Position numbers and translations under genes: made by a program. A model generated the notes under the pieces. The model was not told the DNA's origin and searched no databases. It worked only from the letters and a program-made list of their open reading frames with translations. Shown one piece after another: positions 22,118 to 42,806 of a DNA stretch of 64,000 bases (positions are counted from its first letter, which is position 1; each line of letters opens with the position of its first letter). The stretch is from Candidatus Parcubacteria bacterium (lineage in GTDB: Bacteria; Patescibacteriota; Minisyncoccia; Phycocordibacterales; JAKAEA01): NCBI GenBank assembly GCA_963806325.1, contig CAWDXL010000016.1, positions 68,043-132,042 on the forward strand, read 5' to 3'.

Positions 22118-22555
22118 ATGGCAACAGCATCAATCAAAATTTCTCCGGTAAATATCGACGAACGCAAGTCTCTCGACCTTCGTGCCGGTGACACTGTAAA
22201 AGTGTGGCAGAAAATCAGAGAAGGAGATAAAACCCGCCTCCAAGCGTTTGAGGGCCTTGTTTTGGCCCGCAAACACGGCTCTGAAGCAGGTGCGACATTT
22301 ACGGTTCGCAAAGTAGCTTCGGGTGTAGGTGTTGAAAAAATCTTTCCTCTTTATTCTCCAAACATCGATAAAATTGATCTTATCCGCCGCGCCAAAGTCC
22401 GCCGCGCCAAACTTTATCACATTCGTGAAAAAGCCGCCAAGGAAATCAGTCGCGAAATGCGCCGCACCATGGTCATCAAGCCCCGCAAAGAAGTTGTGGC
22501 AGATGCTCCAGCCGAAACTCCCGCAGAACCGGCAGTAAGCAGCGAAGTAAAATAA
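22118..22555 (+). CDS. rplS: 50S ribosomal protein L19 with a C-terminal extension
   Basis: [31 protein letters not shown]...FTVRK...[13 protein letters not shown]...[10 protein letters not shown]. Confidence 0.92.
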
Positions 22556-22566
22556 AATCTCATTCA

Positions 22567-22607
22567 AAACACCCTCTCAAAAATTTGAGAGGGTGTTTTG
22601 TTTTTTT
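22567..22607 (+). terminator. Rho-independent terminator after rplS
   Basis: aaaacaccctctcaaa-aat-tttgagagggtgtttt followed by a T-run. Confidence 0.75.
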
Positions 22608-22652
22608 GGATGCTTTGACTTTATGCGTTTTTTAAGTAAGATGTGTCTACAT

Positions 22653-22736
22653 GCGCAGGTGGCGAAATTGGTAGACGCACTACCTTGAGGTGGTAGCGCC
22701 TTCACGGGCTTGGAGGTTCAAATCCTCTCCTGCGCA
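22653..22736 (+). tRNA. tRNA-Leu (anticodon GAG)
   Basis: Acceptor GCGCAGG/CCTGCGC, anticodon stem CTACC/GGTAG with loop TTGAGGT, and a long variable arm. Confidence 0.9.
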
Positions 22737-22780
22737 CAGTAATAAACTCTCATAATTATTTGTGAGTTTTTATTATATAT

Positions 22781-22853
22781 GGTGCTTATAGTGTAATGGT
22801 TAGCACTAGAGTTTGTGGAACTCTCAGTCTGGGTTCAAATCCCAGTAGGCACC
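22781..22853 (+). tRNA. tRNA-His (anticodon GTG)
   Basis: An extra 5' G(-1) opposite C73, anticodon loop TTGTGGA, and T-arm CTGGG-TTCAAAT-CCCAG. Confidence 0.9.
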
Positions 22854-24412
22854 CAATTTTGCATCTATTAGTTGTAGCTCAGAACGCTTTATATTAAGCG
22901 ATATTAGCGTTTCCGGACTTTTCTGATAGAGCTTGTTTTCCGTAATTAACATCTGAAAGAAGGGGGTCGAGTGCGCTTTTATTAGTTGGCCGTCTTGCAC
23001 CTCAAACTTTTCCCAGAAAAATGTCAGTAAGTTCCGTTTTAGGTCGAATGATGCCTTTTTGTATACTTGATATATATTCTTGCTGAATGAGATTATTTCT
23101 TGTGCCACATTAGCATCAAAGCCCCTGATGTCTTCTAGCTCTGATAGTCTAACGGAGAGGCTTTTAAGCTCGCCATTGCATTCATTTATCATTCTTTTGA
23201 ATGTCTCATCGTCAATTAATCCTATTTTGTCTTCAATCGTCTTTCTTTTTGCCTCCCAAGCAGTACGCATATTGACCAATGTCTGCCTATTGCGGTCATA
23301 GTCTTTCACTTGGCTGTCAAACATACCCTTGGTTTTTTCAATAATATTATTTGTGAAGCTCTCACTAAATTGGAGGTCTTTAAATTTCTCCGCCACTGCT
23401 TCCTCAAGGAGAACCTGGTCACAATAGAGGCCACAACCAGTTGGGTTAGTACATCGGTAATATATTTTCTTTTTTTCATATTTGACCTCACCAGTAAATT
23501 TTCTATTGTGGATTGGGCAAAACAGAAGACCTCCTAATAACCACTTATGCTTACGTCGTCGGCATCTATTGCCCGTATGAGCCTTGAGAACGAGCTGTAC
23601 TTGGTCAAAGGTTGCTTTATCAATCAAAGGCTCGTGCTTTGCCTTTTTAATATGTATATGACCCCATTTAAGCTCGCCAATATAAAATGGGTTAGCGAGA
23701 AATCTATACATGACACTTGGTGCAGTCTTTTTACCCGTCTTACTCCGTAAGCCTTTTTCATAAAATATATCTATCAATTCGTACACATTATAAGAACCTG
23801 TTGCGTACATCTGGAAGAACTCAGTCATGAGTTTTCCCATTTCAGGATGAGGTATAACTATTCTATCAGCCATCTTATCTGTATGTGTTTTGTCTGGGTT
23901 CTCAACATTAGTGTAACCTAATACGGCTCTACTAGGTAAATAACCAGCCGCGGCTTTTGCATAGGTAATTTTCTTTACTTTTTTCGACGTAATATCTTTA
24001 TGATATTGGCTAAATGAGGCAACCATTGTATCCATAACTGTAGACTCAGCACTACCATCTGGAGTTGCCATTTGACTGTACTTCAATTCAACATTATTTT
24101 TCTCCAGTAGTTCTTTAAACTGAAAATAAAACATAGTGTCTCTTGCAATTCTGTCAGAATGCACTGCATACACGGCCTTAATCTTTTTTTGTTTTTTACA
24201 AGCTCAATAATTTCTTGAATACCTTTTCGGTTTCTATTTCCTCCAGATTTTCCTTTGTCAATAATTATTTTTAGAACTGTGTATCCATCTTTTTCTATTT
24301 CATCTCGGCAAGCTTTTTCTTGATTACCTAATGATTGATTATCGATTTGGTCGAGGGTACTGACTCTACAATACCCAACAGCATATCCTTTTGAATTTAT
24401 TATTTCGTTCAT
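22824..24412 (-). pseudogene. Large serine recombinase, split into two ORFs (24083-24412 and 22824-24203) by a -1 frameshift in an A7 run
   Basis: The N-terminal ORF carries the catalytic motif GYCRVSTLDQ. The downstream frame continues with KIKAVYAVHSDRIARD, a recombinase domain and a Cys-rich zinc ribbon (CPIHN...YYRCTNPTGCGLYC). The frames join at T7 24184-24190 on the plus strand. Confidence 0.85.
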
Positions 24413-24413
24413 A

Positions 24414-24890
24414 TTATTTTTTATTAGTTATTAATTTCTTACTCAATTTTCTTTTGCTAGCCACTAAATCAGAATGGTAAGCATTAAAGACAGCAAACAT
24501 TGATTCAATAAGGTTAGATTCAGCAGAAGTATCTTGCTTTATATTTGCAAATCTAACCTCAATGTCATTTGTCTTACAGAGATTTTTAAACTTACCCCAC
24601 CTTTCTATATTTCTAGAAATTCTTTCTAAATTAGCACAATATATAAGCTCCACTTTCTTTTCGTTTACCAAGGTTTCCAATCTTTTGAATCCTTCTCTAG
24701 TAAAATCATCCGCGCTTTTTTGAGTATCAATGACAACCTCCTCAATATCAGCATTATCTCTAACAAGAGCTTGTATACAAGTTGTTGCCTGTTCAGCAAT
24801 CAGACGATTATTTAATAATGGGTCATCATTTCTAGCTCTGATGTAAATTACCGCCATCTTCCTATTTGATTTTTTTACTTCCATACTCAT
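24414..24890 (-). CDS. Resolvase-fold protein lacking the canonical catalytic serine
   Basis: AVIYIRARNDD aligns to the Y.RVS motif with Arg at the Ser position. The LERISRN motif (dRlsR) is retained. Its stop lies 1 nt before the integrase ATG. Confidence 0.65.
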   Translation of the reverse strand: MSMEVKKSNRKMAVIYIRARNDDPLLNNRLIAEQATTCIQALVRDNADIEEVVIDTQKSADDFTREGFKRLETLVNEKKVELIYCANLERISRNIERWGKFKNLCKTNDIEVRFANIKQDTSAESNLIESMFAVFNAYHSDLVASKRKLSKKLITNKK

Positions 24891-24909
24891 TTATTATTTG
24901 ATTAATTTT

Positions 24910-25122
24910 TTACCTCATGAATCCTGTGAAATGCACGAGGCGAGGGGAGACACCGAAATCTACAGCTCTTTTTGTCATGTATGAATTCAGAATTTTCAGT
25001 GGCTCCTTCGCCTGACATTTTGCAAGGTCATAACTTATATCTCCACGCTTCATCAATCGCTTAATCTCGTCTAACCTGATTTTCGCTAACTTAGCCTTTT
25101 CCTGCATGATTTCATTGCTCAT
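24910..25122 (-). CDS. Small hypothetical protein (first gene of the recombinase operon)
   Basis: 70 aa with an ATG start, lying downstream of a good promoter on the minus strand. Confidence 0.4.
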   Translation of the reverse strand: MSNEIMQEKAKLAKIRLDEIKRLMKRGDISYDLAKCQAKEPLKILNSYMTKRAVDFGVSPRLVHFTGFMR

Positions 25123-25158
25123 ATTGACATTAATTTAATTACGTTGCATTATAATTAA

Positions 25159-25186
25159 ATTATAATGTCTTGCCGTAACGAATCAA
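25159..25186 (-). promoter_or_regulatory. Sigma70-like promoter (minus strand): TTGATT-N16-TATAAT
   Basis: On the minus strand the -35 TTGATT is plus-strand aatcaa at 25181-25186 and the -10 TATAAT is at 25159-25164. Confidence 0.4.
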
Positions 25187-25210
25187 GGCTTATACAGCAA
25201 CGTTATCCAC

Positions 25211-26257
25211 CTATGTAATTTGATTCCAACTATATAAGTAGCGATTGTGTTGAGCTTTGGTTACAGCGATTATTCCTTCGGATAATAAGTTATCTAAAAC
25301 CTGCTTTACCATATTTTGGGAATATTTATTTGGAAGTTCATCTTTGATTTGCAGTATATCTATACTTTCTAGCTTAGTTTTTAACAAATCGGATATTTCA
25401 ATAATCGCCATTTCTTGCTTTTCTTTCTGTCTCTTATCCTCCCCATCGTAAGATAATTCCATTAGGCCATTCTCATTTTTACTAATCTTTACCTTGAAAG
25501 AAGGTACAGCTTCATCTTGTCGCAATTTGGTCTGTTCGAGATATAGACAGCTATTAGGTTTATCTAATTTAACTGCTATATGCACATCGACTCCTGCAAG
25601 AATGTCAGATGAACCTCTTAGACTTTGGGAGGGGTTATTGTAACCAGACGATTCTTTTCTGTGATGATGTGTAAAAATAATACTTGTTCCCGTTACTCTA
25701 ATTTTCTGCAAGCCTTCCAATACTTTTGCCATATCTCTTGAAGAATTTTCTTCTCCACGATGGATTCTAACTAATGAGTCAAAAATAACGAGTTTGATAT
25801 TTTTCTGTTTAACTACTTCAATGAGGTGATTTAAGTCTTCCTCCTTGTCAATTTTGAAGCCTATCTGATTGAGGTAATGAATTTGGAAATTATCATCAGC
25901 ATTTATCCCAAAGGCCCTTCCTCTCTTTTGAATTGTTCTAAGATTGTTTTCTTCGTCAACAAATAAAACTGAAGATTTTAATACTTCAAATTTATTCAAG
26001 AATAGGGAGCCTGATACAAGTGAATTTGCGATAGCCATAGTAATCCAAGTCTTAAAATTAGATGGACTACCTGAAATCACAGAAATAGTATCAAGAGGGA
26101 ATAGCTTATCAATCAACCACTCTTCTTTTCCGTAGTCAGCCTGAATAATTTCGTTAAGGGTTTTAGTTTTGAATCGGTTTATTGATTCATTCTCATTCTT
26201 GATTTCCATATCAAGTTGCTCGATAATTTTTTCTGATTGTTTAACAATTTCTGTCAT
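25211..26257 (-). CDS. AAA_25/RepA-like RecA-fold ATPase
   Basis: WLIDKLFPLDTISVISGSPSNFKTW is a P-loop with F in place of the second G. Walker B is KLVIFDSLVRIH. The start overlaps the stop of the upstream gene (ATGA). Confidence 0.7.
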   Translation of the reverse strand: MTEIVKQSEKIIEQLDMEIKNENESINRFKTKTLNEIIQADYGKEEWLIDKLFPLDTISVISGSPSNFKTWITMAIANSLVSGSLFLNKFEVLKSSVLFVDEENNLRTIQKRGRAFGINADDNFQIHYLNQIGFKIDKEEDLNHLIEVVKQKNIKLVIFDSLVRIHRGEENSSRDMAKVLEGLQKIRVTGTSIIFTHHHRKESSGYNNPSQSLRGSSDILAGVDVHIAVKLDKPNSCLYLEQTKLRQDEAVPSFKVKISKNENGLMELSYDGEDKRQKEKQEMAIIEISDLLKTKLESIDILQIKDELPNKYSQNMVKQVLDNLLSEGIIAVTKAQHNRYLYSWNQIT

Positions 26258-26898
26258 AGATTGAGTAGATACTTCACTGCTTCAACGAAAGTTAAACTAT
26301 GAAGTAATCTGATTAGAATAATAATATTTCCATTCCTGCCACAGCCGAAGCAGTGAAAAGTGTTTGTTTTAAGGTAGATTGTGAATGAGGGAGTTTTTTC
26401 ATTGTGTAGGGGACAACTACCGATTAAATTTTTGCCAACTCGCTTGAGTTTGATACTTAACACGCTTTCAATTGGAACTGATTCAGCCCTTTGAATATCT
26501 GCTTCGCTCAACCAATTTTTATTTGGCGGACTTGCGCCTGAGTAGAGGTTATCCAGCCGTTTTAGTCTTTTGATTTGATTTTGTATTTCTACTAGTCTTG
26601 GTATATCTAGATGCTTTACCACAGCTTTCCAGAACCATTGATTCTCAAGAGCAGATTTCTGGTTAATAATCCTAAGTTTGTCTTTGATTAATGATTCTTC
26701 CATCTTGTACTCCTTCTGCCACTCATAAATTTTTTCAATTATCACAGAGTGTGCCTCTGGAAATACTTTTTTCAACTCACCCTCAAAGAAATGGTTAGAT
26801 TTTTTCCATGCAACTTCCATAGCTTCAACTTCTCTCCAGAGCAGTAGGTCATCACGAAAATCCTCAGTCATGAGACTGGTAATATATCTATTTTCCAT
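26254..26898 (-). CDS. CHC2 zinc-finger (DnaG-type) protein without a recognisable TOPRIM domain
   Basis: The C-terminal CPLHNEKTPSFTIYLKTNTFHCFGCGRNGN is the CHC2 primase zinc finger. Confidence 0.7.
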   Translation of the reverse strand: MENRYITSLMTEDFRDDLLLWREVEAMEVAWKKSNHFFEGELKKVFPEAHSVIIEKIYEWQKEYKMEESLIKDKLRIINQKSALENQWFWKAVVKHLDIPRLVEIQNQIKRLKRLDNLYSGASPPNKNWLSEADIQRAESVPIESVLSIKLKRVGKNLIGSCPLHNEKTPSFTIYLKTNTFHCFGCGRNGNIIILIRLLHSLTFVEAVKYLLNL

Positions 26899-27079
26899 CT
26901 TCTTCTTTCTTCTTATTTTTTCGACTATGCTTTTCTTTAATTAACTGGAAAAATATTCGAGCTAATCTTTCGGCAGCAATATCGACCTCAGTTTTTTCTG
27001 TTTGTGTTTCTTGCTCCATCCATTCGATACTAAGTACTTCGATGATTGTGTTAAGTTGTGCCTATTTGTGCCTTATAGT

Positions 27080-27103
27080 AAAAAAGCCCTATTTAAAGGG
27101 CCA
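27080..27103 (-). terminator. Rho-independent terminator (minus strand)
   Basis: On the minus strand ggcccttt-aaa-tagggc is followed by tttttt. Confidence 0.55.
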
Positions 27104-27171
27104 ATAAACTCATTTAAAAAGTTATCAACAACAAAAAAGCAACCGTTTGCTAAGTCATCTGGGAAATGATT

Positions 27172-27630
27172 TTATTTTGAAAGTTTTAAACCAACTCCTC
27201 TGTTTGTTTCAATGATGCCCTTATCTGAACTCTTATCTAGCGACGTGTGTTCAAGTAGTGCTTTCACTCCGTTAGTAATACGTTCTACAATTTTTTTCTT
27301 GTTCTGACATTTCTCGTGATTTTTTGATTCAAGATATTTATTGATACTTTCGTATGTTGCAGAACCATCTTTTGTATAAAAAAGGAAAGATACTATATGG
27401 TAGTGTAAAGAACTTGTTCCACTAAAATCTATTTTTTTATCACCATAATAGAAATCATTGTCTCTTTGTGTTACAACGCGCCGCCCACTTATTGCTGTGG
27501 CGGGGGATTGAGAGTAGTTAATATTTGCTAGAACCGCATCAATATCAGCCTCATCTTTAGAACCTTTAAGAAATACTTTGTGTTTGAACAATAGATTACT
27601 CGATTTCGTTTTAAGAAAATTATCAAGGCT
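27172..27630 (-). CDS. OmpR/CadC-type winged-helix DNA-binding segment (no ATG anywhere; probably the C-terminal part of 27528-28247)
   Basis: IVERITNGVKALLEHT...IIETNRGVGLKL resembles the trans_reg_C recognition wing. The frame is open from 27630 and the only candidate start is the TTG at 27591. Confidence 0.5.
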   Translation of the reverse strand, partial: SLDNFLKTKSSNLLFKHKVFLKGSKDEADIDAVLANINYSQSPATAISGRRVVTQRDNDFYYGDKKIDFSGTSSLHYHIVSFLFYTKDGSATYESINKYLESKNHEKCQNKKKIVERITNGVKALLEHTSLDKSSDKGIIETNRGVGLKLSK

Positions 27631-28247
27631 TTATTCGCATCTTTGATACTCGAATTGGCTTTTTCTGACTCTTTCTCAGCAAAAAATAAGTTAGAAAATG
27701 GAAGTTTGTAAAACTTTTTTACCTCATACAGTAAATCATCTTTCAGTAATTTTTCAATATCCTTGCAAAGCTCAATGTATACCACATTATGTTCTTCTGT
27801 TACAGCCCTGACATCAGTTGCATAATAATTTAGTAGTTTAATCAGAATTACTACTTTTTCAGACAAGAGTTCCAGGTTATCTTTTTTAAGTTTTGATATA
27901 TCTTTAGCATATTTTTTAAGGCTTGCGGGTCGTGCTTCAAAAATAGCTACTTCCATTTGAGTGTCTTCTTCAATATAAAAACTATTCTCCTGCTCAGGAT
28001 AGTCTCTTACAGGTATAATCTCAGTAGTGTATTTTAAATTTTTTATTAACCCAATTTCTTTAAAATAATCAAGAATCGGATATAGTATATGAGAATCAGA
28101 ATTTCCCAGTTCGCCTAGTTGCATTTTTACTTTATGAAATTCCAATGGTTTTGATAGATTTTTTTTATTCAAATCATAAATTGCTCTCAACATTCTTTCG
28201 ATGAGTATTTGTGAAGGTTTTTTGATTTGTTCAGGACTGTTTTTCAT
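27528..28247 (-). CDS. Hypothetical protein (element regulator/replication region)
   Basis: 239 aa with an ATG start. The last ~30 residues look like out-of-frame read-through (see finding). Confidence 0.5.
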   Translation of the reverse strand: MKNSPEQIKKPSQILIERMLRAIYDLNKKNLSKPLEFHKVKMQLGELGNSDSHILYPILDYFKEIGLIKNLKYTTEIIPVRDYPEQENSFYIEEDTQMEVAIFEARPASLKKYAKDISKLKKDNLELLSEKVVILIKLLNYYATDVRAVTEEHNVVYIELCKDIEKLLKDDLLYEVKKFYKLPFSNLFFAEKESEKANSSIKDANKALIIFLKRNRVIYCSNTKYFLKVLKMRLILMRF

Positions 28248-28421
28248 TGTAAGTATAATAGTATTTTTTGCTCCAGTTTCTAGATTTTCAGGCCAGTCTC
28301 TAAACTTTTCATATTGAAGCCACTAACTAATTATTTAGTAGAACCCAACTATATATTCAGTATCTAAAATATGCAAAAAATAAACTAAGAGCATAAATGA
28401 CTGAAATGTAAGACCCCGTGA

Positions 28422-28465
28422 GTTTCTAGTTTTTTCCTACTATATATAGGGAATAAACTAGGAAC
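28422..28465. repeat. 44-bp imperfect palindrome centred on TATATATA
   Basis: gtttctagttttttc (28422-28436) matches the reverse complement of gaataaactaggaac (28451-28465) at 13 of 15 positions. Confidence 0.6.
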
Positions 28466-28483
28466 TGGTTTAAAACATGATTA

Positions 28484-28752
28484 TTACCCTATATTTTCAC
28501 ATAATATACAGATATTTTATGTGGAAGAATGGGGAGAAATGGGTAACTTTTTACGCAAGTTAGCCATATTCTATTACCCACTAAAAATAGTAATGGGTAA
28601 ATTTTAAAGCAGAGAATAATACTAAATTGTCTATATAAATGGTTGAAAATAGCGAGTCATTTACACAAGTTAAATGTAAATAGGTAAAAACAGGTAACTT
28701 TTTACACAGATTAGCCATTCTTGACACCCTATCTCAAATTGCAATTAGGTAA
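28484..28752. promoter_or_regulatory. Iteron-like repeat cluster (GGGTAA/AGGTAA motifs and 26-nt direct repeats)
   Basis: (G/A)GGTAA or its complement occurs at 28484, 28541, 28574, 28595, 28682, 28692 and 28747. The 26-mers at 28542-28567 and 28693-28718 are identical at 23 of 26 positions. A partial third copy lies at 28660-28672. Confidence 0.5.
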
Positions 28753-28807
28753 TTTGTATCAAATATTATTTACATTAATGCTTAGAATCTAGAAAATTTT
28801 AAAGCCT

Positions 28808-28835
28808 TTGAGAACTTCTAACTGTGCTATATAAT
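28808..28835 (+). promoter_or_regulatory. Sigma70-like promoter TTGAGA-N16-TATAAT
   Basis: The -35 is at 28808-28813 and the -10 at 28830-28835. It faces the cargo genes. Confidence 0.5.
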
Positions 28836-28842
28836 GCAAGCA

Positions 28843-29053
28843 CAACTGAATAAGTAGGCCTAAACTTAGAGTATTAACCCTCTAGGCATGGCCAGAAAGC
28901 GTTCCATACAAAAAACCCCGTTATCAATGGGCGTATGGAACGTTGCAAGTCGAAAGGCTTGTATTAAGGCGAAAGCCTTAACCTTGGTAGCGGGATTTTT
29001 CGTGCAACGAAAGTTCCTACTCCAAGGAGTCATTTTATTAGTTAATAATTTAT
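28843..29053 (+). promoter_or_regulatory. Structured ~210-nt leader / candidate cis-regulatory RNA
   Basis: There is a 12-bp stem (28898-28909 with 28933-28944) and a GNRA hairpin ttaaggc-gaaa-gccttaa (28964-28981) with a competing aaggc at 28954-28958. An outer stem (28982-28990 with 29017-29027) encloses the hairpin tttcg-tgcaa-cgaaa. Confidence 0.35.
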
Positions 29054-29755
29054 ATGAGTATAAAAACCCTGTGGCAGAGGAGAAAAAGACAAATTATTAT
29101 CGGCGGCAGTGTTATTTTATTAATACTGGTTGTCTGGACTGACATTGTTTCCAACAGGCCAACAACTATCACATTGATTCAACCTCAAGATGGGGCATCA
29201 ATACAGGCAAGCAGTACTATTATTGAAGGAATAGTTACTCCTAAAAATGCAATGGTTTCAGTTAATGGCATCCCAGTCATTCTAGATAGCAATGGTCAAT
29301 TTTCATCCGAAGTAGCTTTGCCTGATGCAACAAATACAATCACTGTTACCGCATTTGGTAACACTCCCACAACTTCAACCTTAACAATTAATCGCATCTT
29401 TGCTCCTGGAGAACAGGCTGAAATAGCAAAAGAGGCTGCTGATGCCAAAGCTCAAGCAGATGCAGACGAAAAAGCCGCCGAAGCGCAAGCCAAAGCTGCT
29501 CAAGAAGCATATGACAGCACTCCTGCTGGCAAAGCGTGCAAAGGTCATCCTGATTGGTCGGCAGATATTTGTGAAGTGCTTGGAAAGGGTCACGTTAGTA
29601 TTGGTATGGACGAAGAACAGGCTTTGGTGGGATGGGGTCAACCAGACCATGTCAATACAACGACTACCGTATTAGGCACGCATGAGCAGTGGGTCTACGA
29701 TTACTCCTCCTATCTTTATTTTGATAATGGAATATTAACCTCGATACAAAATTAG
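29054..29755 (+). CDS. Membrane-anchored secreted protein (Ig-like region, Ala/Glu-rich linker, small C-terminal beta domain)
   Basis: 233 aa. It has an N-terminal TM helix, and the C-terminal GMDEEQALVGWGQPDHV...HEQWVY...YLYFDNGILTSIQ resembles SmpA/OmlA-like domains. Confidence 0.55.
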   Translation: MSIKTLWQRRKRQIIIGGSVILLILVVWTDIVSNRPTTITLIQPQDGASIQASSTIIEGIVTPKNAMVSVNGIPVILDSNGQFSSEVALPDATNTITVTAFGNTPTTSTLTINRIFAPGEQAEIAKEAADAKAQADADEKAAEAQAKAAQEAYDSTPAGKACKGHPDWSADICEVLGKGHVSIGMDEEQALVGWGQPDHVNTTTTVLGTHEQWVYDYSSYLYFDNGILTSIQN

Positions 29756-29756
29756 T

Positions 29757-29984
29757 ATGAAAAAGTATCTAATTAAGCTCATACAGAGATACCAGCAAAA
29801 CATTTCACCAATCCTCAAGGAAAGAGGAGTTAGATGCTTGTATCAGCAGACCTGCTCCCACTATGGGGTTGCTGTCCTTAAAAAATACAGTGTTCCGGTG
29901 GCACTGACACTCATCACTTTCAGGTTGTTGAGCTGTAACCCAGTCAATGGTTACTTTAAACGCAGATTAGCAAGTAATAAATAA
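29757..29984 (+). CDS. yidD: Membrane protein insertion efficiency factor YidD
   Basis: LIQRYQQNISP...RCLYQQTCSHYG...FRLLSCNP matches the YidD pattern. The ATG lies 1 nt after the upstream stop. Confidence 0.72.
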   Translation: MKKYLIKLIQRYQQNISPILKERGVRCLYQQTCSHYGVAVLKKYSVPVALTLITFRLLSCNPVNGYFKRRLASNK

Positions 29985-29987
29985 AAT

Positions 29988-30254
29988 ATGGCAAAGGAAT
30001 ACAAAACGCTGATATACCAAGATAATCTTGAGGGCAGAACAAAAATGGCAAGTGAGATTGATACACTAGCTCAGGATGGTTGGCAAATAAAAAGCAAGGA
30101 GGTTGCTTCTCAAGGTTGGGATGCGGGGTCAACGTGCTGTTTAGGTTGCCTTTTTCTGCCTCTGGCACTTCTAGGCAAGAAAGACAATATCATTACGGTT
30201 ATTATGGAGCGAGAGAAGAAAGAGACTCCAGCTAAGGTTTCTCCCTCTGCGTAA
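29988..30254 (+). CDS. Small hypothetical protein with a C-terminal hydrophobic Cys-rich segment
   Basis: 88 aa with an ATG start, tightly spaced after yidD. Confidence 0.45.
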   Translation: MAKEYKTLIYQDNLEGRTKMASEIDTLAQDGWQIKSKEVASQGWDAGSTCCLGCLFLPLALLGKKDNIITVIMEREKKETPAKVSPSA

Positions 30255-30405
30255 AATCGTTTATACTAGACGAAAAGGCTTCTACTATTGCAATTACTCA
30301 TTATCTGCAATAACGAAGCCCATAGGGGATTTTACGCATAAATACGTATGTTTCTACATATTATTTCGATAAAATGATAAACTTGACATACCTCATCAAA
30401 AACTA

Positions 30406-33400
30406 ATGAATAGTACTTCTGAAAAAAGTGAATCAAATAAAAGTGGTTTAATCTTCATTCGAGATGTAGCCAAGTATTTTATGGACTTCCTTGAGACGGA
30501 TTTCCATAAGAGAAAGAATCCTAAAAGAAGTATTAAGCTTCGTGACAGCGATAACCTTTTAATAGGAATTAATCTTAATAAATATTCTTCCTTCAATACC
30601 AATATTTGGAAACTTATTAATCATAATTTTACTAAAAATAATGTAGACACTCTTGAGAAGGGAGTATACAAGACTTCGATTCCAAAGAATTTAGTTGACC
30701 TAATTAAATTACAAGCTGAAAAGATAGATAAAAAGCAGATTAATGATGCGATAAAAACAATATCAGATGAAATAGAGAAAGCATCAATTCTTTACAAAAA
30801 AGAATATGACAAAGCGTTAAATGCTTCTTTAGAGGAAAGTTCGAAGATTATAAAACAGGATTTAGTTTTACCTTTTATATCTCATATTGAAAAACCTTTA
30901 GAGAACCTGCAATTAGGTGATGAGAATAACATATACCTCATGGAGGAGGAGATGACAGCAGTCCTCTTGAGGCTCATTGAAAACAAAGTTTCTGAAATTC
31001 TTAACCTGTTAATTGTTGATAATAAAGTCAATATCGAAAAGGAATTAAAATCTGCCTTTGATTTTGACGATATTAAAAATAATATTATTAACTACTTTGA
31101 AAATATTCAGGTTGCAGACTTATTTTCTGAGGTGTTTGAGATGGAAAGAAATAGAAGCATCTTAGACAAGCAGGAATTCTATCTTTATTTTACAGATATT
31201 ACTTTCGATAAAATTAAGTACCCAATTTTTTATATCCCATTCTCGCTCAAAAAAGATAATGATATTTTTAGAATAGAGTTTGATTCTCAGATTTACATCA
31301 ATAAGAAAGCTCTTGAGTTTGCTGTTCAAGAATATAATAAAAATAAGGATTTGCACGGTAATCTAAAAAGCATAACGGAACGCATAATTTATCTAAGTCA
31401 GCATGAGACTGATTTGGTTGAAATACTAAACTCTATCCTCAAAGAAATAATTAATTTCTTTGAGCTTGATAGCGCTATTGATATTACAAATTCTGAACCG
31501 CTGCAAGTGGCCAGAAGTTTACTTGCGAGAGTATCCAATTCAACCTATATAAGTCTCTTTGATAAATCAGATGAGGCACTGGTAAATGATTATGAAGAAA
31601 TAGTTACCTTGCTTTCTTCCGAAGACAGTATTCTTGGAGATGCCTTTAATAAACTGATTGATAACTTCATCTATAAGAATCCTGAGCCTTTTAACCCTCA
31701 AGTGGAGGATGAGTGGGACAATTTAGACAATAAAGAAAAACTTGTTTCAGAACACCCGATACCTCTTAATAGTGAACAGCTACAAATTGTTTCGGCAATT
31801 AAGAAAGACGGATGCAAATACCTTACTGTAGAAGGTCCGCCTGGTACTGGTAAAAGTCATACTATAACCGCAATTATTTTTGATGCTATCTTAAAAAATA
31901 AGTCCGTATTGGTGCTCTCTGATAAGAAAGAAGCATTAGATGTGGTCGAGGATAAAATAACAGAAACAATAAACAAAGTACGACATGATAAGGATTTTCA
32001 AAATCCTATTTTAAGACTTGGAAAGACTGGTAGTACATATGGACAAATATTAGCAAAAGCTTCAATTGAAAAAATAAAAACTCATCATAGGGCTATTAAG
32101 AAAGATTATGATAATCTTCAACAAAATATTTCCAAGCTATCAAACTCAGTCAAGGAAGATTTGGAAGCCGAAGTACTAGCGTACAAAGATATTGATATTC
32201 ATGAAATTCAAGAATTTTCTGAGTTAGAAAAATATTTCATAGATAACAACCCCTTGGTGGATGTACAAGAAGTTACCCAAGTAACTGACTCTGGATTTGA
32301 GCTTGAAGAATTGAGAAAAATTATTCTTGATATACGGAAAAATGTTCAGAAAGACTCTTCGTTGAAAAACAAGATTTTTAATTTTATTAATATTTCTGAA
32401 AAAGAATTTTGCAGTCTCGCAGATTTCAAAAGTTTCATTAGTTATTTAGAGCTGATAGAGAGCAATATCCAAGCAGTCAAGGATACCTATAAGGATAAAA
32501 TTTCTACCCTAAAACAGTTCAAGCAATTTACAATAAAGGATTTAGAATATGTAAAAACGTATATTCAGAGCGTGGAAAATCTAAAAGGAAAGATATTTGG
32601 TTACATGTTTCGTAAAGAAAAACTCCAAAAACTTGATGTTGAGTTCAAAAATAATGTTCCATCAAGTCTATTTGAGACTCCCCATGAGCATATAGGGGAA
32701 CTGAGAGATGTTTATGAATTACTATACTTCGCATCCTCTCTCAATAAAGATATAAAGAATGATTGGTTAGATGTAACCGACTACTATAGATTTATTCATT
32801 GCTTATTGGCTGACGAAAACTATGGGGAGTACTTCAAGAATCTCATTAAACTTTCGGATGAAGTTACATATTTTGAAAGTATTATTTCAAGCTATCCACT
32901 AACAGCTCAGAAAACAGCTATATCTGTTTCAGATTTTAGTACCGTTATTAACAATAAATTCAGTGAGGTAAATGATTTAGAATTTAATCAACAAATAAGA
33001 TACATTAACTTAATTCAAAAATTAAATAATGACTTCAATAAAATCCCATCAATTAACTATGCGGGCCAAAAGAAAAATATAGAAGACCTCGTCACAGCCC
33101 AAGTTACTTATATGTTAGATGGTCGATTAATTGATTTCTATGAGAACAATAAAGCTGATGCAGAGACATTGAGAAATATTATAAAAAATAAACAAAGATT
33201 TCCCAAGGAAGAATTTTCTAAGATTAAAGAAGCTTTTCCATGCATATTGGCAGGAATTCGTGACTATGCGGAATATATACCGCTCCAACCTGACATATTC
33301 GATTTAGTTATTATAGACGAAGCTTCTCAGGTAAGTATTGCTCAGGCGTTTCCGGCATTATTGAGAGCAAAGAAGGTGCTTATTCTTGGAGACAAGAAAC

Positions 33401-34968
33401 AATTTAGCAACATAAAGGCCGCTCAAGCTCGCTCTGATACAAATAAAGAATATCTCAATAGACTTGAAGATTCATTTAAGACTCATGTATCTGTTGATGC
33501 AAGCAAGCTTGTTAAGCTTGGTAAATTTGATATCAAAACTTCAATATTAGAATTCTTTGAGTTTATCAGTAATTACAATATTCAACTACTCAAACATTTT
33601 CGAGGATACAAGGAAATAATTTCTTACTCAAATAAATACTTCTATCAAGAGAGTCTTCAGGTAATGAAAATTCGAGGCAAGGCAGTAGATGAAGTAATAA
33701 AGTTTTCCTTTATAGACAATACTGATATTGTCAGACCTGCACCCAATAGTAATGAAAATGAAGTTGATTTTATAATCTCAGAGCTTCAAAAAATAAAAGA
33801 ATCCAATAAAACTCCCACCGTTGGAATAATTACTCCACATACCAATCAGCAAAAGATTTTAGTTGATAAGATTAATAGGTTGGCAGATAGGGATTACTAT
33901 TTTGATAAGTTGAATTTGAAAATAATGACTTTCGATACTTGCCAAGGAGAAGAAAGAGACATTATTTACTATTCAATGGTAGCTGATAAAGATTCCGATA
34001 GGCTATGGGGTATTTTTATAAAAGACCTTACAAAAGTTGACATAGAAGAAGACGGCCAAATAAAAGCACAAAGATTAAATGTTGGTTTGAGTAGGGCAAA
34101 GGAATGTATGCACTTTGTCCTTAGTAAACCAATAGATGATTTCAACGGTTCAATTGGTGATGCTCTTCGACATTATCAATTTGTTCTTGATGAAGCAAAA
34201 AAAGAGAAAGATATTTCTCAAACTGACCAAAAATCTAAAATGGAGCCTGAGGTTATGAATTGGTTTTATCAAACAGAATTTTGGAATAAAAATAAAGACA
34301 GAATCGATTTCATACCTCAATTTGAAATAGGGAAGTACCTACGGCAGTTGGATAGAAATTATACACATCCAAACTACAAAGTTGATTTTCTATTGGTATA
34401 CAAAGATGAAGCAGAAAAAACTCATAAGATAGTTATTGAATATGATGGATTTGTAGAACACTTCTCTAATTTAGATGAAGTAAATGAATTCAATTACGAC
34501 CATTATTATTCAGATGACGACCTTTATCGTGAAAAAGTGATTGAGAGTTATGGGTATAAATTTTTAAGAATCAATCGTTTTAATATCGGGACTAATCCAA
34601 TGGCTACGCTTGATGAAAGAATAGGCAAAATAATCAAGGGCAGAAGATTAGAAAATCAGATACTCACTAGTATTCATGAGACCGTTGATGGATTGGAAAA
34701 TGGCGAAATGAAGGAGTGTCCGAAGTGTAAGGAAATTAGAAACCTCAGTGATTTCAAAGATTCGTCTTTGATTACGGGTCATGGTAGATTCTGTCAGAAC
34801 TGTAAAAACATTCACAAAGACAGGGTTATAACTAAATCTGTTCCTGTAGTAGATAACAGTAAAAAATGTCCAAAGTGTAGTTCAGGAATGATACTGAGAA
34901 ATGGCAGACGTGGTAAATTCTATGGATGCTCAAAATTTCCCTATTGTAGAGGAACAAGAGAAGTCTAA
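30406..34968 (+). CDS. 1520-aa SF1 (Upf1/AAA_11-AAA_12-type) helicase fused to a DUF559/Vsr-like endonuclease domain and C-terminal zinc ribbons
   Basis: Walker A GPPGTGKSH (31834-31857), Walker B DLVIIDEASQ (33301-33330), MTFDTCQGEERD and RLNVGLSRAKE. The nuclease-like block is VDFLLVY...IVIEYDGFVEHF...YGYKFLRINRF. The topoisomerase-type ribbon is CPKCSSGMILRNGRRGKFYGCSKFPYCRGT. Confidence 0.85.
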   Translation: MNSTSEKSESNKSGLIFIRDVAKYFMDFLETDFHKRKNPKRSIKLRDSDNLLIGINLNKYSSFNTNIWKLINHNFTKNNVDTLEKGVYKTSIPKNLVDLIKLQAEKIDKKQINDAIKTISDEIEKASILYKKEYDKALNASLEESSKIIKQDLVLPFISHIEKPLENLQLGDENNIYLMEEEMTAVLLRLIENKVSEILNLLIVDNKVNIEKELKSAFDFDDIKNNIINYFENIQVADLFSEVFEMERNRSILDKQEFYLYFTDITFDKIKYPIFYIPFSLKKDNDIFRIEFDSQIYINKKALEFAVQEYNKNKDLHGNLKSITERIIYLSQHETDLVEILNSILKEIINFFELDSAIDITNSEPLQVARSLLARVSNSTYISLFDKSDEALVNDYEEIVTLLSSEDSILGDAFNKLIDNFIYKNPEPFNPQVEDEWDNLDNKEKLVSEHPIPLNSEQLQIVSAIKKDGCKYLTVEGPPGTGKSHTITAIIFDAILKNKSVLVLSDKKEALDVVEDKITETINKVRHDKDFQNPILRLGKTGSTYGQILAKASIEKIKTHHRAIKKDYDNLQQNISKLSNSVKEDLEAEVLAYKDIDIHEIQEFSELEKYFIDNNPLVDVQEVTQVTDSGFELEELRKIILDIRKNVQKDSSLKNKIFNFINISEKEFCSLADFKSFISYLELIESNIQAVKDTYKDKISTLKQFKQFTIKDLEYVKTYIQSVENLKGKIFGYMFRKEKLQKLDVEFKNNVPSSLFETPHEHIGELRDVYELLYFASSLNKDIKNDWLDVTDYYRFIHCLLADENYGEYFKNLIKLSDEVTYFESIISSYPLTAQKTAISVSDFSTVINNKFSEVNDLEFNQQIRYINLIQKLNNDFNKIPSINYAGQKKNIEDLVTAQVTYMLDGRLIDFYENNKADAETLRNIIKNKQRFPKEEFSKIKEAFPCILAGIRDYAEYIPLQPDIFDLVIIDEASQVSIAQAFPALLRAKKVLILGDKKQFSNIKAAQARSDTNKEYLNRLEDSFKTHVSVDASKLVKLGKFDIKTSILEFFEFISNYNIQLLKHFRGYKEIISYSNKYFYQESLQVMKIRGKAVDEVIKFSFIDNTDIVRPAPNSNENEVDFIISELQKIKESNKTPTVGIITPHTNQQKILVDKINRLADRDYYFDKLNLKIMTFDTCQGEERDIIYYSMVADKDSDRLWGIFIKDLTKVDIEEDGQIKAQRLNVGLSRAKECMHFVLSKPIDDFNGSIGDALRHYQFVLDEAKKEKDISQTDQKSKMEPEVMNWFYQTEFWNKNKDRIDFIPQFEIGKYLRQLDRNYTHPNYKVDFLLVYKDEAEKTHKIVIEYDGFVEHFSNLDEVNEFNYDHYYSDDDLYREKVIESYGYKFLRINRFNIGTNPMATLDERIGKIIKGRRLENQILTSIHETVDGLENGEMKECPKCKEIRNLSDFKDSSLITGHGRFCQNCKNIHKDRVITKSVPVVDNSKKCPKCSSGMILRNGRRGKFYGCSKFPYCRGTREV

Positions 34969-35072
34969 ATAATATATAATATGGTCAACAAAATAAGGTT
35001 AATTGTCTTAGTTGTAAAAAAGACTGAGACACAGAAGCTAATCTAGCGTCTCAGTAGTCTGATTTAATATTC

Positions 35073-35654
35073 ATGTCACCTACAACATCAAAAGTAAAAA
35101 TAATCTTTGATTTACTCACTAAACTTTCTAGTGAAAAACGGCCAAATGTAATTCTTGTTTTAGAGAATGATATGATATTTTCCTACAAAGACCGTCTGAC
35201 TTGGAGACAATGGGCGTCTGGTTGGGATTTCATGAATAATTATGTAAATACAGCAAAACCTAAGCGGGGTGATGTCTTAGATTTCTTTGCTCAATTAGAG
35301 TTAATTGTTAACCAAATCTTTGTAGTTAATTTAGTGGAGAAGAATGATGTGGTTAAAAAATTTGAACAGATACTGGATACAATAGATTTTTTTTCAAAAA
35401 TAAGACTTTTAAATCAATGGTCATTAATAGATAATACCTTAAACGGGAAACTTACTTCTCTAAGAAAGGTGAGGAATGGTTTTGCTCATGTCTGGAATAT
35501 TGAGGAAGTTAAATATAAAAATAAACCAATTTTAGAAAATATTTCCAAGTTTAAAGAGGACGCCAGAGAGGTGTTTGTTTCTCTAGTAAAAATTTATAAT
35601 AGAGGTGAAATAAATCTAGATGTTTTAATTGAAAAATTAAAATTAAAAAATTAA
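35073..35654 (+). CDS. HEPN-superfamily protein (R-x4-H motif)
   Basis: FFSKIRLL...LTSLRKVRNGFAH, with RNGFAH at 35472-35489, fits the HEPN RN..AH motif of MtlR/Abi-like families. Confidence 0.55.
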   Translation: MSPTTSKVKIIFDLLTKLSSEKRPNVILVLENDMIFSYKDRLTWRQWASGWDFMNNYVNTAKPKRGDVLDFFAQLELIVNQIFVVNLVEKNDVVKKFEQILDTIDFFSKIRLLNQWSLIDNTLNGKLTSLRKVRNGFAHVWNIEEVKYKNKPILENISKFKEDAREVFVSLVKIYNRGEINLDVLIEKLKLKN

Positions 35655-35662
35655 TATCTAAA

Positions 35663-36166
35663 ATGAAAGAAGATATATTGCGTCAAAAAATAAGACGAGA
35701 ACTGTCTAATCTACCAATTGATACAGAGCCGAGAGCTATGTATTTATTAGTTGAAATAAGAAAAGTTCTTGAGCATGAAAATGTGAAAGGGGGAATTCTT
35801 CGTTTTTATTGTGACTGGGTTGTTCATACGAAATTAGACCGCTTTGGTGCCCAAGAAATTTATGACAAGATAAATAGTGAAAACACTGAAAGCTCTCAAA
35901 TAATCTCTTTTAATAAGTTAAAAAATGAACTTAAAAAGTTTCTCAAGGATAGGGATTTACAAACAGACCTTACAGACAAAAGTAATTTTTGGAAGACCTT
36001 TAAGGAAAAGTTGATTGATATTTTAGTTGATACTCCAATTGAGAAGATTGATAAAGTTATAGCTGGTTCATTCTTTTATCGAAAGGAGAATACTTCGGGT
36101 ATTCACTTTTGTTTCAAAGACAAAGATGGCGCAATAAGAAGTCTTGGTAGAATTATTGAGGAATAA
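35663..36166 (+). CDS. Hypothetical protein (partner of the HEPN gene)
   Basis: 167 aa with an ATG start 8 nt after the HEPN stop. No motif was recognised. Confidence 0.5.
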   Translation: MKEDILRQKIRRELSNLPIDTEPRAMYLLVEIRKVLEHENVKGGILRFYCDWVVHTKLDRFGAQEIYDKINSENTESSQIISFNKLKNELKKFLKDRDLQTDLTDKSNFWKTFKEKLIDILVDTPIEKIDKVIAGSFFYRKENTSGIHFCFKDKDGAIRSLGRIIEE

Positions 36167-36227
36167 TAAATTGCCAGAATCTTTTTATTTTGGATTTAAA
36201 TAAAATAATATTAAAGAATGTAATTCG

Positions 36228-36866
36228 ATGAATCTCCCTCAATCACTACTGCCTACTGAAAAGATGGAGGTTGATTTACCCAATGGTATAACCGTCTTAC
36301 TTCCTCTTTGTCGTCCTGTTTTTTCTCAATGGACAGGTGATGCAATTAATTTTGATTACGGCAAAAAGCCGGTACTTAACTATAAAGGAGAACCATGTTT
36401 TGCGGAGCTATTAATACTTCGCATGTTGCTTGCTGAGGGTTGGGAAGGGGTATGGATTGAAGCCTATGGTGGAACTCATTTTCTTAAAACTATGCCTAAA
36501 GCATGGAATTTGAAATCGGAACATGTATCTATCCCAGAAGACAAAGAAGCATTACTTAAAAGGATATGGAAAACGGGCAATACAAAAGCGTGCTTCGATG
36601 TGTTTGTCTGGCATGAAGGCCAGTATTTATTTCTTGAAGCGAAAAGAGACGGCAAAGATAAACTGACATCAGCTCAAGCAAAGTTTATAGAGGGAGCGTT
36701 AGCTTGCGGCGTACTGCCAGAACATATGATTATTATTGAATGGAAAACTGAAACAGCGGCAGAAAAGCTGTCCGATGAAAATATATCTGAGCTTGTAGGA
36801 TTTTTTGATGAGCTTCACAAATTTGATAGAGAAGATAAAGAAAAAAATGAGGAAGAAAAAGAATAA
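36228..36866 (+). CDS. VRR-NUC-like PD-(D/E)xK nuclease with an acidic C-terminal tail
   Basis: CFDVFVWHEGQYLFLEAKRDGKDKLTSAQAKFIEGALACG fits the D...E.K core followed by the VRR-NUC ls..Q motif. Confidence 0.6.
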   Translation: MNLPQSLLPTEKMEVDLPNGITVLLPLCRPVFSQWTGDAINFDYGKKPVLNYKGEPCFAELLILRMLLAEGWEGVWIEAYGGTHFLKTMPKAWNLKSEHVSIPEDKEALLKRIWKTGNTKACFDVFVWHEGQYLFLEAKRDGKDKLTSAQAKFIEGALACGVLPEHMIIIEWKTETAAEKLSDENISELVGFFDELHKFDREDKEKNEEEKE

Positions 36867-36982
36867 GCCAAAAGTTGCAGTCAAGCGAGCCGAAGGAGTA
36901 TCAGATGATGAAATACAACGACGACTGGCTAGAGCGTTTGATGTATTGTTTACAGCCACGGCAGGTAAGCTAAAATAGACTG

Positions 36983-37474
36983 ATGGCCACAATACTTATT
37001 TTAATAGTTGTAGTAATTATTGCTCTATTATTTTTTGTACTGAATAAATTAGGTGAGAGTAATAAAAAACAATGGGCGTATCAATACAAGAGAAAAGACT
37101 TCTTCTTATCTCGTGCGGAGCATGAGTGCTACGATGCCCTTATGCTCGCTGTGGGGAAGGATTATTACATCTTTGCTCAAGTTCACGTGCCAACCATTGT
37201 AGATAGTAAAGTCGTAGGCCAAAATTGGCGTGGCGCATTTCGCCATATCAACGAAAAGTCCGTTGATTTTGTATTGTGTGATAAAGCGTATATTTCACCC
37301 AAACTTGTTATTGAGCTAGATGACAGAACCCATGAACGTATTGATAGGGTAGAGCGAGATAAGGAGGTGGAGCGCATTTTGAAAGACGCTGGACTACCCT
37401 TACTTAGGTTAGAAAATAATGGGAAATTTAATACGGATGAATTAGCCCAAAAAATAACGTCTCTATTGAGTTAA
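36983..37474 (+). CDS. DUF2726 (endonuclease-like) protein with an N-terminal TM helix
   Basis: LSRAEHECYDAL...IFAQVHV...KSVDFVLCDKAYISPKLVIELDDRTH...RDKEVERILKDAGLPLLRL matches the DUF2726 pattern. Confidence 0.75.
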   Translation: MATILILIVVVIIALLFFVLNKLGESNKKQWAYQYKRKDFFLSRAEHECYDALMLAVGKDYYIFAQVHVPTIVDSKVVGQNWRGAFRHINEKSVDFVLCDKAYISPKLVIELDDRTHERIDRVERDKEVERILKDAGLPLLRLENNGKFNTDELAQKITSLLS

Positions 37475-37500
37475 AATTTTATTATTGCTAGGCTTACGGC

Positions 37501-37995
37501 ATGGCAATTATCACCAAAAAAATCCTGCCAGAATGGTTTGATGCAATTGCTTCTGGGCAGAAGAAGTATGAACTTCGTCTTGCTGATTTTGATATTCAGG
37601 AGGGAGATACACTTCGGTTGGAAGAATGGGTTGGAGAAGGAGAGGGTAGAAAGGCAACAGGTAGGGTGATAGAAAAGAAAATCAGCTATGTACGCAACTT
37701 TGATGTAGATACATGGATGAAACAACAGCCAGAAATTAAAGAAAAAGGAATGTATGTATTGCAGTTCGATGATTCTAAAAATGAGGCAGAGAAAAAGTAT
37801 GTTCAAGAAGAAACATATGGCCTACTGTTAATCGGTATTGCGTTCGGAATCATAGGTGGAATGGCCGCAAATGTGCTGGATAGAATATTTGGGCAATTTG
37901 GTGTTTGGTATGACCTCATTATTGTAATTTTGTTTGCCGTTGCTTGTGCGGGACTAACATATCTTCTGAAAAGAAAATTAAAATACATGAAGTAG
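37501..37995 (+). CDS. ASCH-like (DUF3850) domain protein with a C-terminal TM region
   Basis: KKILPEWFDAIASGQKKYELRLADFDIQEGDTLRLEEW...ATGRVIEKKISYV, then the hydrophobic LLLIGIAFGIIGG and LIIVILFAVACAGL. Confidence 0.65.
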   Translation: MAIITKKILPEWFDAIASGQKKYELRLADFDIQEGDTLRLEEWVGEGEGRKATGRVIEKKISYVRNFDVDTWMKQQPEIKEKGMYVLQFDDSKNEAEKKYVQEETYGLLLIGIAFGIIGGMAANVLDRIFGQFGVWYDLIIVILFAVACAGLTYLLKRKLKYMK

Positions 37996-38012
37996 AGACA
38001 ATTTAAAAAATT

Positions 38013-38489
38013 ATGGAAGCCAAATCTCAGAAAAAAATTGTTTACATTGATATGGATAACGTCTTAGTTGATTTTCCATCAGCTTTTTCTAAGATAGATA
38101 AAACCATATTTGAACAGTACGAGGATAAAGATGATATTCCTGGAATTTTCAAATTAATGGAACCGCTGAAAGGTGCACTCGAATCGTTTGCAACACTCTC
38201 TGAAAAGTTCGATGTATATATCTTGTCTACCGCCCCATGGAATAACCCGTCTGCATGGTCGGACAAGCTTGAGTGGATAAAGAAATATTTAGGTGAAGAT
38301 GCACGCAAAAGATTGATATTGACTCATCATAAAAATCTGAATAAAGGCGATTACCTGATTGACGATAGGACAAAAAACGGAGCATCTGAATTTGAGGGTG
38401 AGCACATACATTTCGGAACTGAAAAATTCCCAGACTGGAATAGTATCGTTGAGTATTTGTTAAAAACACGTAATAAGGCTGAGGTATAG
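38013..38489 (+). CDS. 5'(3')-deoxyribonucleotidase (NT5C-type HAD phosphatase)
   Basis: IVYIDMDNVLVDF is the DxDxV nucleophile motif. This is followed by YILSTAP and DYLIDDR. Confidence 0.75.
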   Translation: MEAKSQKKIVYIDMDNVLVDFPSAFSKIDKTIFEQYEDKDDIPGIFKLMEPLKGALESFATLSEKFDVYILSTAPWNNPSAWSDKLEWIKKYLGEDARKRLILTHHKNLNKGDYLIDDRTKNGASEFEGEHIHFGTEKFPDWNSIVEYLLKTRNKAEV

Positions 38490-38732
38490 TTTTAGACTAT
38501 TTCTCAAAAAGCAGAGTTAACTTAGCGTAGAACCTTACGCTTGAATCCATATGACTGCTGTGGCTAGATATGGGTACTGTTTTTGATGCAGCATAGCTCT
38601 TGTTAAATTCAACTAACATACAAGCGTTTTACGGATTCTTATAATTCCTTCTAAGTAATGAATGTTTAACTCATCCTATAGAACCCTTAATTAGCAATGT
38701 AAAATAGAGTTTCTTCTAATTTCTCCTAACAT

Positions 38733-40160: not shown

Positions 40161-40291
40161 GAACTACTATCTTATCACTTTCTGAGAATAGCAAGAAATA
40201 CACATGAGAGTATGAGGGCAGAAAGTCATGAAGGCATTGTCAGGGGAGGGATAGATTTACATTTCCAAGAATTTGAGCTAGCTTTTAGTAC

Positions 40292-40630: not shown

Positions 40631-40636
40631 AATAAA

Positions 40637-41371: not shown

Positions 41372-41373
41372 AT

Positions 41374-42171: not shown

Positions 42172-42218
42172 TAAAGTCATGGCAGTATGCAAACTGCTTC
42201 TTTTTAGGAAAATAGGCA

Positions 42219-42806
42219 TTAAAATTCAACTGCTTCTTTTTGAGCTACAACCTTCAAAAAACGAATCTGCATAAGGATTTTATCCATAAACGAGCCATCC
42301 TTTAATGCCTCACTAATATTATTATGGTAGCGACCCAACTTAGGTCTTATTATAACTTCTGAATCCGCCTTTGTTTTAAGGGTTTTTATCAAATATGGAT
42401 TTTTGTAATCAACGACTTTGAGACGCATTAATTCTTCAAAAAGAGGGGAGTAATGAAATTTTATTATAACTCCATCTTTGACCTCAAAACTATTAAAAAA
42501 GAAATCAATAAAGCGCTTCTGAAGTTTTTCTGGTGCTTGTATGTAAGTGTTATAAACATCTTTAGTAAAGCTAAGGATCTCACTCACAATTTCAGTGTTT
42601 GTTTCTTTGGTTTTCTGCAGTTTATTGATTTGAATGTCGATATTGCCGACCGCGACGTCAATCTCCTCTTTAATACGCGTATAATCGCTTCTAGACAGAG
42701 TTTCATCGAGTAAACGATCCTCAGCCGTCTTAAGTTTTGCTTCCCAAGCATTCTTTCGGTTCAGAAGACCTCTGTGTCTGGTGTGGTATTGGGTCCGTGC
42801 GTCAGC
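42219..42806 (-). pseudogene. Truncated large serine recombinase (C-terminal ~195 codons only)
   Basis: The frame is open from 42806. NRKNAWEAKLKTAEDRL and FFFNSFEVKDGVIIKFHYSPLFEELM parallel MRTAWEAKRKTIEDKI and FFWEKFEVQDGQLIKAHSTPFFQMLI of the 22824-24203 recombinase. No catalytic or recombinase domain lies upstream. Confidence 0.75.

Follow-up and report, generated by a model that had tools for sequence, protein, structure and literature searches.

Integrases such as those of phiC31, Bxb1, TP901-1 and A118, which we take to be of the same kind as the protein considered here, carry a resolvase domain with the YxRVSTxxQ and SDRxAR motifs, followed by a Recombinase domain, a zinc ribbon and a long C-terminal region. 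The same arrangement is predicted for a protein of about 529 residues encoded, like those enzymes, at the edge of an integrated element, in a stretch of 64,000 nucleotides (C16:68043-132042; hereafter the window) of G000, the draft genome of an ultra-small bacterium of the CPR/Paceibacteria type (921,032 bases in 23 contigs, rated 85% complete). Two features distinguish it from the phiC31-type enzymes: its gene lies in two reading frames in the assembly, and its lineage adjoins tRNA-His, at five of six related loci. The first of these we regard as probably the result of an indel error in the consensus sequence, the integrase being intact in the organism.

The integrase gene is read from the minus strand. 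Its N-terminal open frame extends from an ATG at 24412 to 24083 (109 aa), the final 33 aa being out of frame, and this leaves an N-terminal piece of 76 in-frame codons (24185..24412), delimited by the open frame and by a match to positions 1-63 of the Resolvase profile PF00239 (E 2.5e-14); the motif YCRVSTLDQ is found here. The second frame is open from 24203 to a stop at 22824 and reads ..KKQKKIKAVYAVHSDRIARD..; on the evidence of Pfam and of the alignment of homologues, its contribution to the protein would be a C-terminal piece of 453 codons plus the stop (22824..24185), free of any further lesion. This piece takes up the Resolvase profile at positions 61-143, with the motif HSDRIARD, and thus supplies the rest of the catalytic domain, as the preliminary description had claimed for the -1 frame; the Recombinase domain (PF07508; E 5.7e-12, 46.2 bits against a cut-off of 21.1), the zinc ribbon (Zn_ribbon_recom, PF13408; E 6.3e-06, 26.9 bits against a cut-off of 25.3) and the long C-terminal region follow in that order. 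The catalytic domain with its nucleophile serine is therefore split over the two pieces, the succession of PF07508 and PF13408 that marks large serine recombinases lies wholly within the second, and the single polypeptide typical of these enzymes is represented in the deposited sequence by two frames. Judged from its domains, the gene is that of an ordinary large serine recombinase, or serine integrase.

At the meeting point of the two frames the minus strand has gta aaa aac aaa aaa aga, in which six A residues (24197-24192), a C (24191) and seven A residues (24190-24184) follow one another. The observation that the integrase is interrupted at the A7 run (24184..24190) and that the frames rejoin by a -1 shift is thus confirmed, and the product obtained by re-reading one base at 24185, or by adding one A, comprises 76 + 453 = 529 aa, instead of the approximately 540 aa first proposed. 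Runs of this length are commonplace in the genome, which holds 313 A7 and 309 T7. Homology confines the switch of frame to the interval between ..ELV and IKAVY.., where lysines are encoded in both frames, and the indel could consequently sit in either run, the A6 run (24192..24197), which lies one base upstream of the A7 run, being by homology an equally possible position. When the frames are joined by the addition of one base the interval contains 13 residues, one more than in all 10 aligned homologues; when they are joined by the removal of two bases it contains 12, as in the homologues.

A search with the C-terminal piece returned 73 proteins, one of them the window's own. The next 44 (E <=1e-69, 435-562 aa, 34-52% identity) are, without exception, single chains with both PF00239 and PF07508. 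When both pieces were aligned with 10 of the 72 non-self homologues they fitted these proteins end to end, with neither gap nor overlap at ..GIQE.I.L....KKI.AVY..HSDRIARN, and the nearly invariant residues were retained. Neither this seamless fit nor the way in which the profile coordinates abut is due to chance. Moreover, six of 100 related genomes encode a homologue of the integrase (E <=1e-30), and none of the six genes has an internal stop. Where the break would fall, the nearest homologue (531 aa, 52% identity) has KLVKEGGVTNIY, and the lysine run is absent from it. Closer relatives of the integrase were not found on record, the best non-self match being this one at 52% identity, and the protein is a new and distant member of a known family, the large serine recombinases.

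Assemblies that are long-read and poorly polished are known to retain indels by which genes are fragmented (PMC9262707, PMC12007338, PMC8812927). We took a census of such breaks in G000 that was blind to homopolymers, in which all pairs of open frames on the same strand that could be joined by a single indel, each frame contributing 70 codons or more, were collected. Of 510 raw junctions, 202 had coding potential on both sides and 196 could be tested, six having been dropped at chunk borders. Pfam searches with the 369 pieces identified split genes at 34 of the 196 junctions; leaving aside the integrase, 33 of the other 195 junctions are of this type. In 22 of the 34, the two pieces match one family with abutting profile coordinates (PGK, MreB, MnmA, M32 peptidase, DnaK, CysRS, IleRS, Rpe, an aminotransferase, PGA_cap, TopA, ComM, TraG/VirB4, GH130, UvrD, RuvB, the integrase of the window, a TMEM43-like protein, PilM twice, a ResIII helicase and PALP). 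In the remaining 12, consecutive domains of one canonical protein have been separated; these are DEAD from Helicase_C, SecD, SecF, NusA, transketolase, GTP_EFTU from EF-G_D2 (an EF-G-like GTPase), ParB, the Toprim domain from the core of TopA, domains I and II of PGM, LigA, sigma-70 and PilB. TopA is broken twice.

The 34 breaks are spread over 13 of the 23 contigs, at a density of about 1 per 27 kb. At 22 of them the sequence has one base too many and at 12 one too few. Single-base breaks scattered over all the larger contigs, in both directions, often at or near homopolymers and in essential genes that have a single copy here and are unbroken in relatives, resemble the gene-fragmenting indels of draft assemblies, especially long-read ones. 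DnaK, the sole copy of which is cut in G000, is a single open frame in all 12 of the related genomes compared. The core of TopA, a single-copy protein that is in two pieces in G000, was matched in 11 relatives and is a single open frame in 10 of them; in the other it is cut by the end of a contig, and one further relative gave no match. These tallies include two unpublished genomes (G002 and G008), and become 10 of 10 and 8 of 9 without them. The likeness to described draft errors is imperfect in that only five of the 34 zones within which the frames can be joined hold a run of at least 7, and 11 contain nothing above 4; the short zones of UvrD (11 nt) and NusA (13 nt) have runs of 3-4 only. 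It is imperfect also in that a second assembly, Logan, repeats two of the breaks, those of the integrase and of PGM. A living cell would be unable to carry all these lesions, and the assembly therefore has a high rate of consensus indels, of about one per 27 kb. The same breaks probably also depress the completeness estimate of 85%, as compared with the 92-100% of most relatives. Any pseudogene, split gene or recoding site read from this draft thus needs confirmation at the level of the reads.

An initial census was restricted to homopolymers (A/T runs of at least 7, G/C runs of at least 6), and in it PGK, an IleRS-like synthetase, a PGM-like mutase, GH130, the TMEM43-like protein and PilM were also found in two frames. 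The view that the problem is specific to homopolymers, which this census had suggested, was abandoned, the breaks in PGK, PGM and GH130 being beside the run and not inside it. HisRS, which had been listed as a split gene at a G6 run, reads through intact at that position, and HsdS, a probable split in the same census, failed the coding-potential filter and is excluded from the 34. HisRS, ZIP, a Mur ligase, S9, ATP synthase b/delta and YibE_F are possibly split but were not counted. Besides that of the integrase, one of the 34 breaks is in the window itself, where a PGM/PMM-type mutase lies in two frames (domain I, then domains II-IV) at about 56586-56608 on the plus strand. The zone in which the mutase frames can be joined is 23 nt long and contains runs of 3 at most; it is closed by a TAA with which an A7 run begins, and the second piece opens with its own ATG.

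The preliminary description had put forward three explanations for the break in the integrase gene, namely a sequencing error, an inactivating mutation, and programmed frameshifting or slippage, and had chosen none of them. The first is now the best supported, on account of the 33 further frame breaks in the same assembly; the second keeps a part of its probability; and the third is poorly supported in view of the phase of the site, its predicted folding, the Rfam search and the homologues. The break is present in the deposited sequence, its two pieces fit one protein, and equivalent breaks occur in genes that cannot be broken. As one of 34, the break in the integrase needs no special explanation, and it would share the cause of the others. 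Under the preferred reading, a length error of one base, or of two, would have arisen at the A6-C-A7 tract in the draft consensus, and the organism would probably have an uninterrupted gene. The pieces are otherwise flawless, as judged by the abutting Pfam coordinates, by the alignment with 10 homologues and by the clean frame of 453 codons; many of the other split genes are essential, and two of these, DnaK and TopA, are single-copy and whole in relatives. The occurrence of indels in both senses fits noise and not a mechanism, and at the density observed a gene of 1.6 kb that contains an A6-C-A7 tract is likely to be hit. However, the Logan assembly repeats the break, and the A7 run would be real if the reads behind Logan are accurate. 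Moreover, the integrases of resident elements do decay by frameshift, so that the prior for a real lesion is far above that for DnaK; since the integrase is a gene of a mobile element, and real decay is common in such genes, the inference of an error is a probabilistic one. The small number of joinable zones that hold a run of at least 7 also counts against this reading.

A genuine and recent inactivation, in which slipped-strand loss or gain of a base in the A tract would have left the integrase dead and the element immobilized, with decay just starting, is unlikely, although far from negligible. Homopolymers are natural hot spots of mutation, and the absence of any other lesion in the gene is what a very recent event would leave. 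Beside the element lies what is left of an older, related integrase (see below), which indicates that elements do die at this locus. The exact N-terminal piece of 109 aa, including its out-of-frame tail, is recorded from both Logan and NCBI/ENA, and more than one assembler has therefore produced the break. Yet the break in the PGM/GlmM-like gene recurs in Logan too, so that agreement between the two assemblies is no proof that a break is real. With 33 other conserved genes broken in the assembly, many of them indispensable, one more broken gene carries little evidential weight, and the remainder of the integrase, as well as the neighbouring replication genes, is intact.

How much weight the Logan record can bear was gauged with the other breaks and with intact controls. 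Among the upstream pieces of 10 broken genes, taken from their predicted starts, seven are in the sequence collection, six of them from NCBI/ENA only and one, PGM, from Logan also; of 10 intact genes taken as controls, the collection contains nine, two of which are in Logan. The three upstream pieces and the one control that it lacks were probably missed through a wrongly assigned start codon. Logan thus covers G000 patchily and cannot serve as a clean truth set. With only two of nine controls represented, the absence of broken pieces from Logan is uninformative, and the idea that Logan holds the broken genes in an intact form was discarded for the same reason. An intact PGK of this organism was found in none of the sources of the collection, where the best non-self match has 71% identity. 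The repetition of the integrase and PGM breaks in Logan would be expected if both assemblies drew on the same reads and these had systematic errors, and also if the lesions are real. Metagenome contigs searched with the exact pattern, allowing A5-A9 at the site, yielded no stretch that matched. In a soil-metagenome run, X1 (share 0.09), a contig of 151 nt and depth 3 is identical to the window over 147 nt (24373-24519), and thus the element or a close relative is present in at least one other data set. This contig is the sole read-derived sequence that could be placed, and it stops short of the A run.

A third possibility is that the A7 run is real and that the integrase is expressed through it, either at low dose by -1 ribosomal or transcriptional slippage or in a phase-variable manner, the length of the tract switching mobility on and off. 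We consider this very improbable. A -1 shift on the run does yield a protein of the form expected for the family, a small amount of a recombinase is all that is needed, and by analogy with dnaX, with elements of the IS3 family and with slippage sites an A6-C-A7 tract can slip. As at the -1 frameshift sites of dnaX and of the IS3 family, an A-rich slippery tract here joins the overlapping frames of a recombinase-type gene. In contrast to those sites, the heptamer in the window is out of phase, and neither a Shine-Dalgarno-like element, nor structure above chance, nor conservation accompanies it. The canonical heptamer A AAA AAG, on which the preliminary description had placed the slip, is indeed present; however, it lies in the target frame, the incoming codons being AAA AAA AGA, and neither of the heptamers that are in phase, C AAA AAA or A AAA AGA, can re-pair without a mismatch. 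The 30 nt upstream of the tract are devoid of a GGAGG-like Shine-Dalgarno sequence, which counts against recoding, and the fold of nested base pairs predicted for the 89 nt downstream (-17 kcal/mol, z = -1.06) is equalled by 29 of 200 shuffled sequences. A search of 22500-25500 against Rfam detected no frameshift element, two tRNAs being the only matches above threshold. Thus, the slippery heptamer in the incoming frame, the stimulatory element and the conservation that characterize programmed -1 sites are all wanting. Transcriptional slippage is efficient on runs from about 9 upwards, and the run here is of 7, which counts against slippage. Nor is the frameshift conserved, the 44 closest homologues being single chains, the six related loci open and the nearest homologue devoid of the lysine run; the comparison of orthologues for the same A run, suggested at the outset, thus counts against programming. 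A literature search combining serine integrase, frameshift and homopolymer retrieved no recoded or phase-variable serine integrase. That a real A7 run serves as a slippage-prone or length-variable switch for the dose, or the on/off state, of a serine integrase that targets tRNA-His in an ultra-small CPR bacterium is highly improbable. If true, an integrative element would have its mobility governed by a contingency locus, and a regulatory frameshift would be the first for serine integrases; the evidence points instead to an artefact of assembly.

Error-prone restoration of frame at poly(A) tracts has been described in insect endosymbionts, which G000 resembles in its small genome and in frameshifts associated with A runs, and from which it differs in that the run here is only 7 and that many other breaks have no run. 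The corresponding reading, that all the breaks are real and are tolerated through transcription or translation error-prone enough to restore frames across the genome, could draw on the spread of 34 breaks over 13 contigs and on the repetition of two of them (the integrase and PGM) in a second assembly, but is exceedingly improbable, as slippage would be unable to rescue the 11 breaks in zones with no run above 4, or those of UvrD, NusA and PGM, as the breaks are in both directions, and as the relatives have none in DnaK or TopA.

The consensus-error reading, if correct, leaves the element with an uninterrupted integrase gene of ordinary type, and the position of the gene suggests its target. 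A gene for tRNA-His(GTG) (22782..22854, plus strand) is convergent with the integrase gene and overlaps its 3' end, so that the final codons of the integrase are read from the 3' end of the tRNA gene, which is the inferred site of integration. At five of the six homologous loci, the integrase gene is likewise convergent to, and overlaps, tRNA-His; the sixth, more distant, adjoins tRNA-Ser. Several homologues terminate in GAY(W/R)(D/E)(L/S)NPD, which is the tRNA gene read backwards. A resolvase-type integrase that targets tRNA-Ser is known in a filamentous phage. The GC content, about 44% elsewhere, drops to about 33% from about 23 to about 44 kb of the window. A replication module (25211..26898) lies upstream of the integrase, and in it Pfam identifies an AAA_25 (RepA/DnaB-like) ATPase (25211-26257, minus strand) and a CHC2 primase zinc-finger protein (26254-26898, minus strand). 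Scans of the cargo against Pfam and PHROGs gave results consistent with independent nuclease or defence-type genes, and virion genes were not detected in the element by the same scans.

At the other side lies the C-terminal remnant of a second integrase, of about 155 aa (42324..42794, minus strand), which matches residues 299-454 with 30% identity (E 2e-21). The remnant adjoins a 12-nt copy of the tRNA-His 3' end (42327-42338; 2 mismatches), and no fuller copy of the tRNA end was found within the window. We infer that the remnant and the 12-nt copy form the right border of the element, which would then be about 19.5 kb long (approximately 22845-42326) and inserted in the 3' end of the tRNA-His gene beside the relic of an earlier element. 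This configuration suggests the tandem accretion of two elements at one tRNA. In the excised form of the element the C-terminal tail of the integrase would differ from that of the integrated form and would exceed it by about 38 aa. Tyrosine integrases are usually held responsible for genomic islands in tRNA genes (PMC4383910), and large serine recombinases on tRNA-associated elements are mentioned for 27 of 937 marine elements (10.1101/2020.12.28.424599). A search of the literature, which was not exhaustive, retrieved nothing on this CPR lineage.

The integrase gene is preceded by a gene coding for a stand-alone resolvase catalytic domain of 158 aa (24414..24890, minus strand), which ends one base ahead of the integrase ATG. 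This protein, 28% identical to a member of the family, has another residue in place of the nucleophile serine, its sequence being YIRARND where the family has YxRVST. A word-based search with the protein found only itself, and a HMMER search of 1.84 billion representatives gave 91 matches including the query, many of them stand-alone proteins of 130-165 aa. Alignment of 14 of the 90 non-self matches showed that nine of the 12 small ones lack the serine and mostly have Ala instead. Tandems of a small gene followed by that of a large recombinase were seen at four loci (from L151, L153, L154 and L155), a biased sample that was picked for visible small frames; the serine is lost in two of them (G098, 156 aa, RTN; G062, 152 aa, RTA) and kept in the other two (G203, 249 aa; G115, 145 aa). 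The 158-aa protein may be a catalytically inactive partner by which the integrase is regulated. This gene without the serine and the habit of the lineage of residing at tRNA-His are the parts of the locus that deserve a separate look.

Outside the element, after the gene for L19 and before a tRNA-Leu gene, positions 22542-22607 (plus strand) give a sub-threshold match to the PyrG leader of Rfam (39.4 bits against a gathering threshold of 65; E 0.004), which is probably only a terminator-like hairpin.
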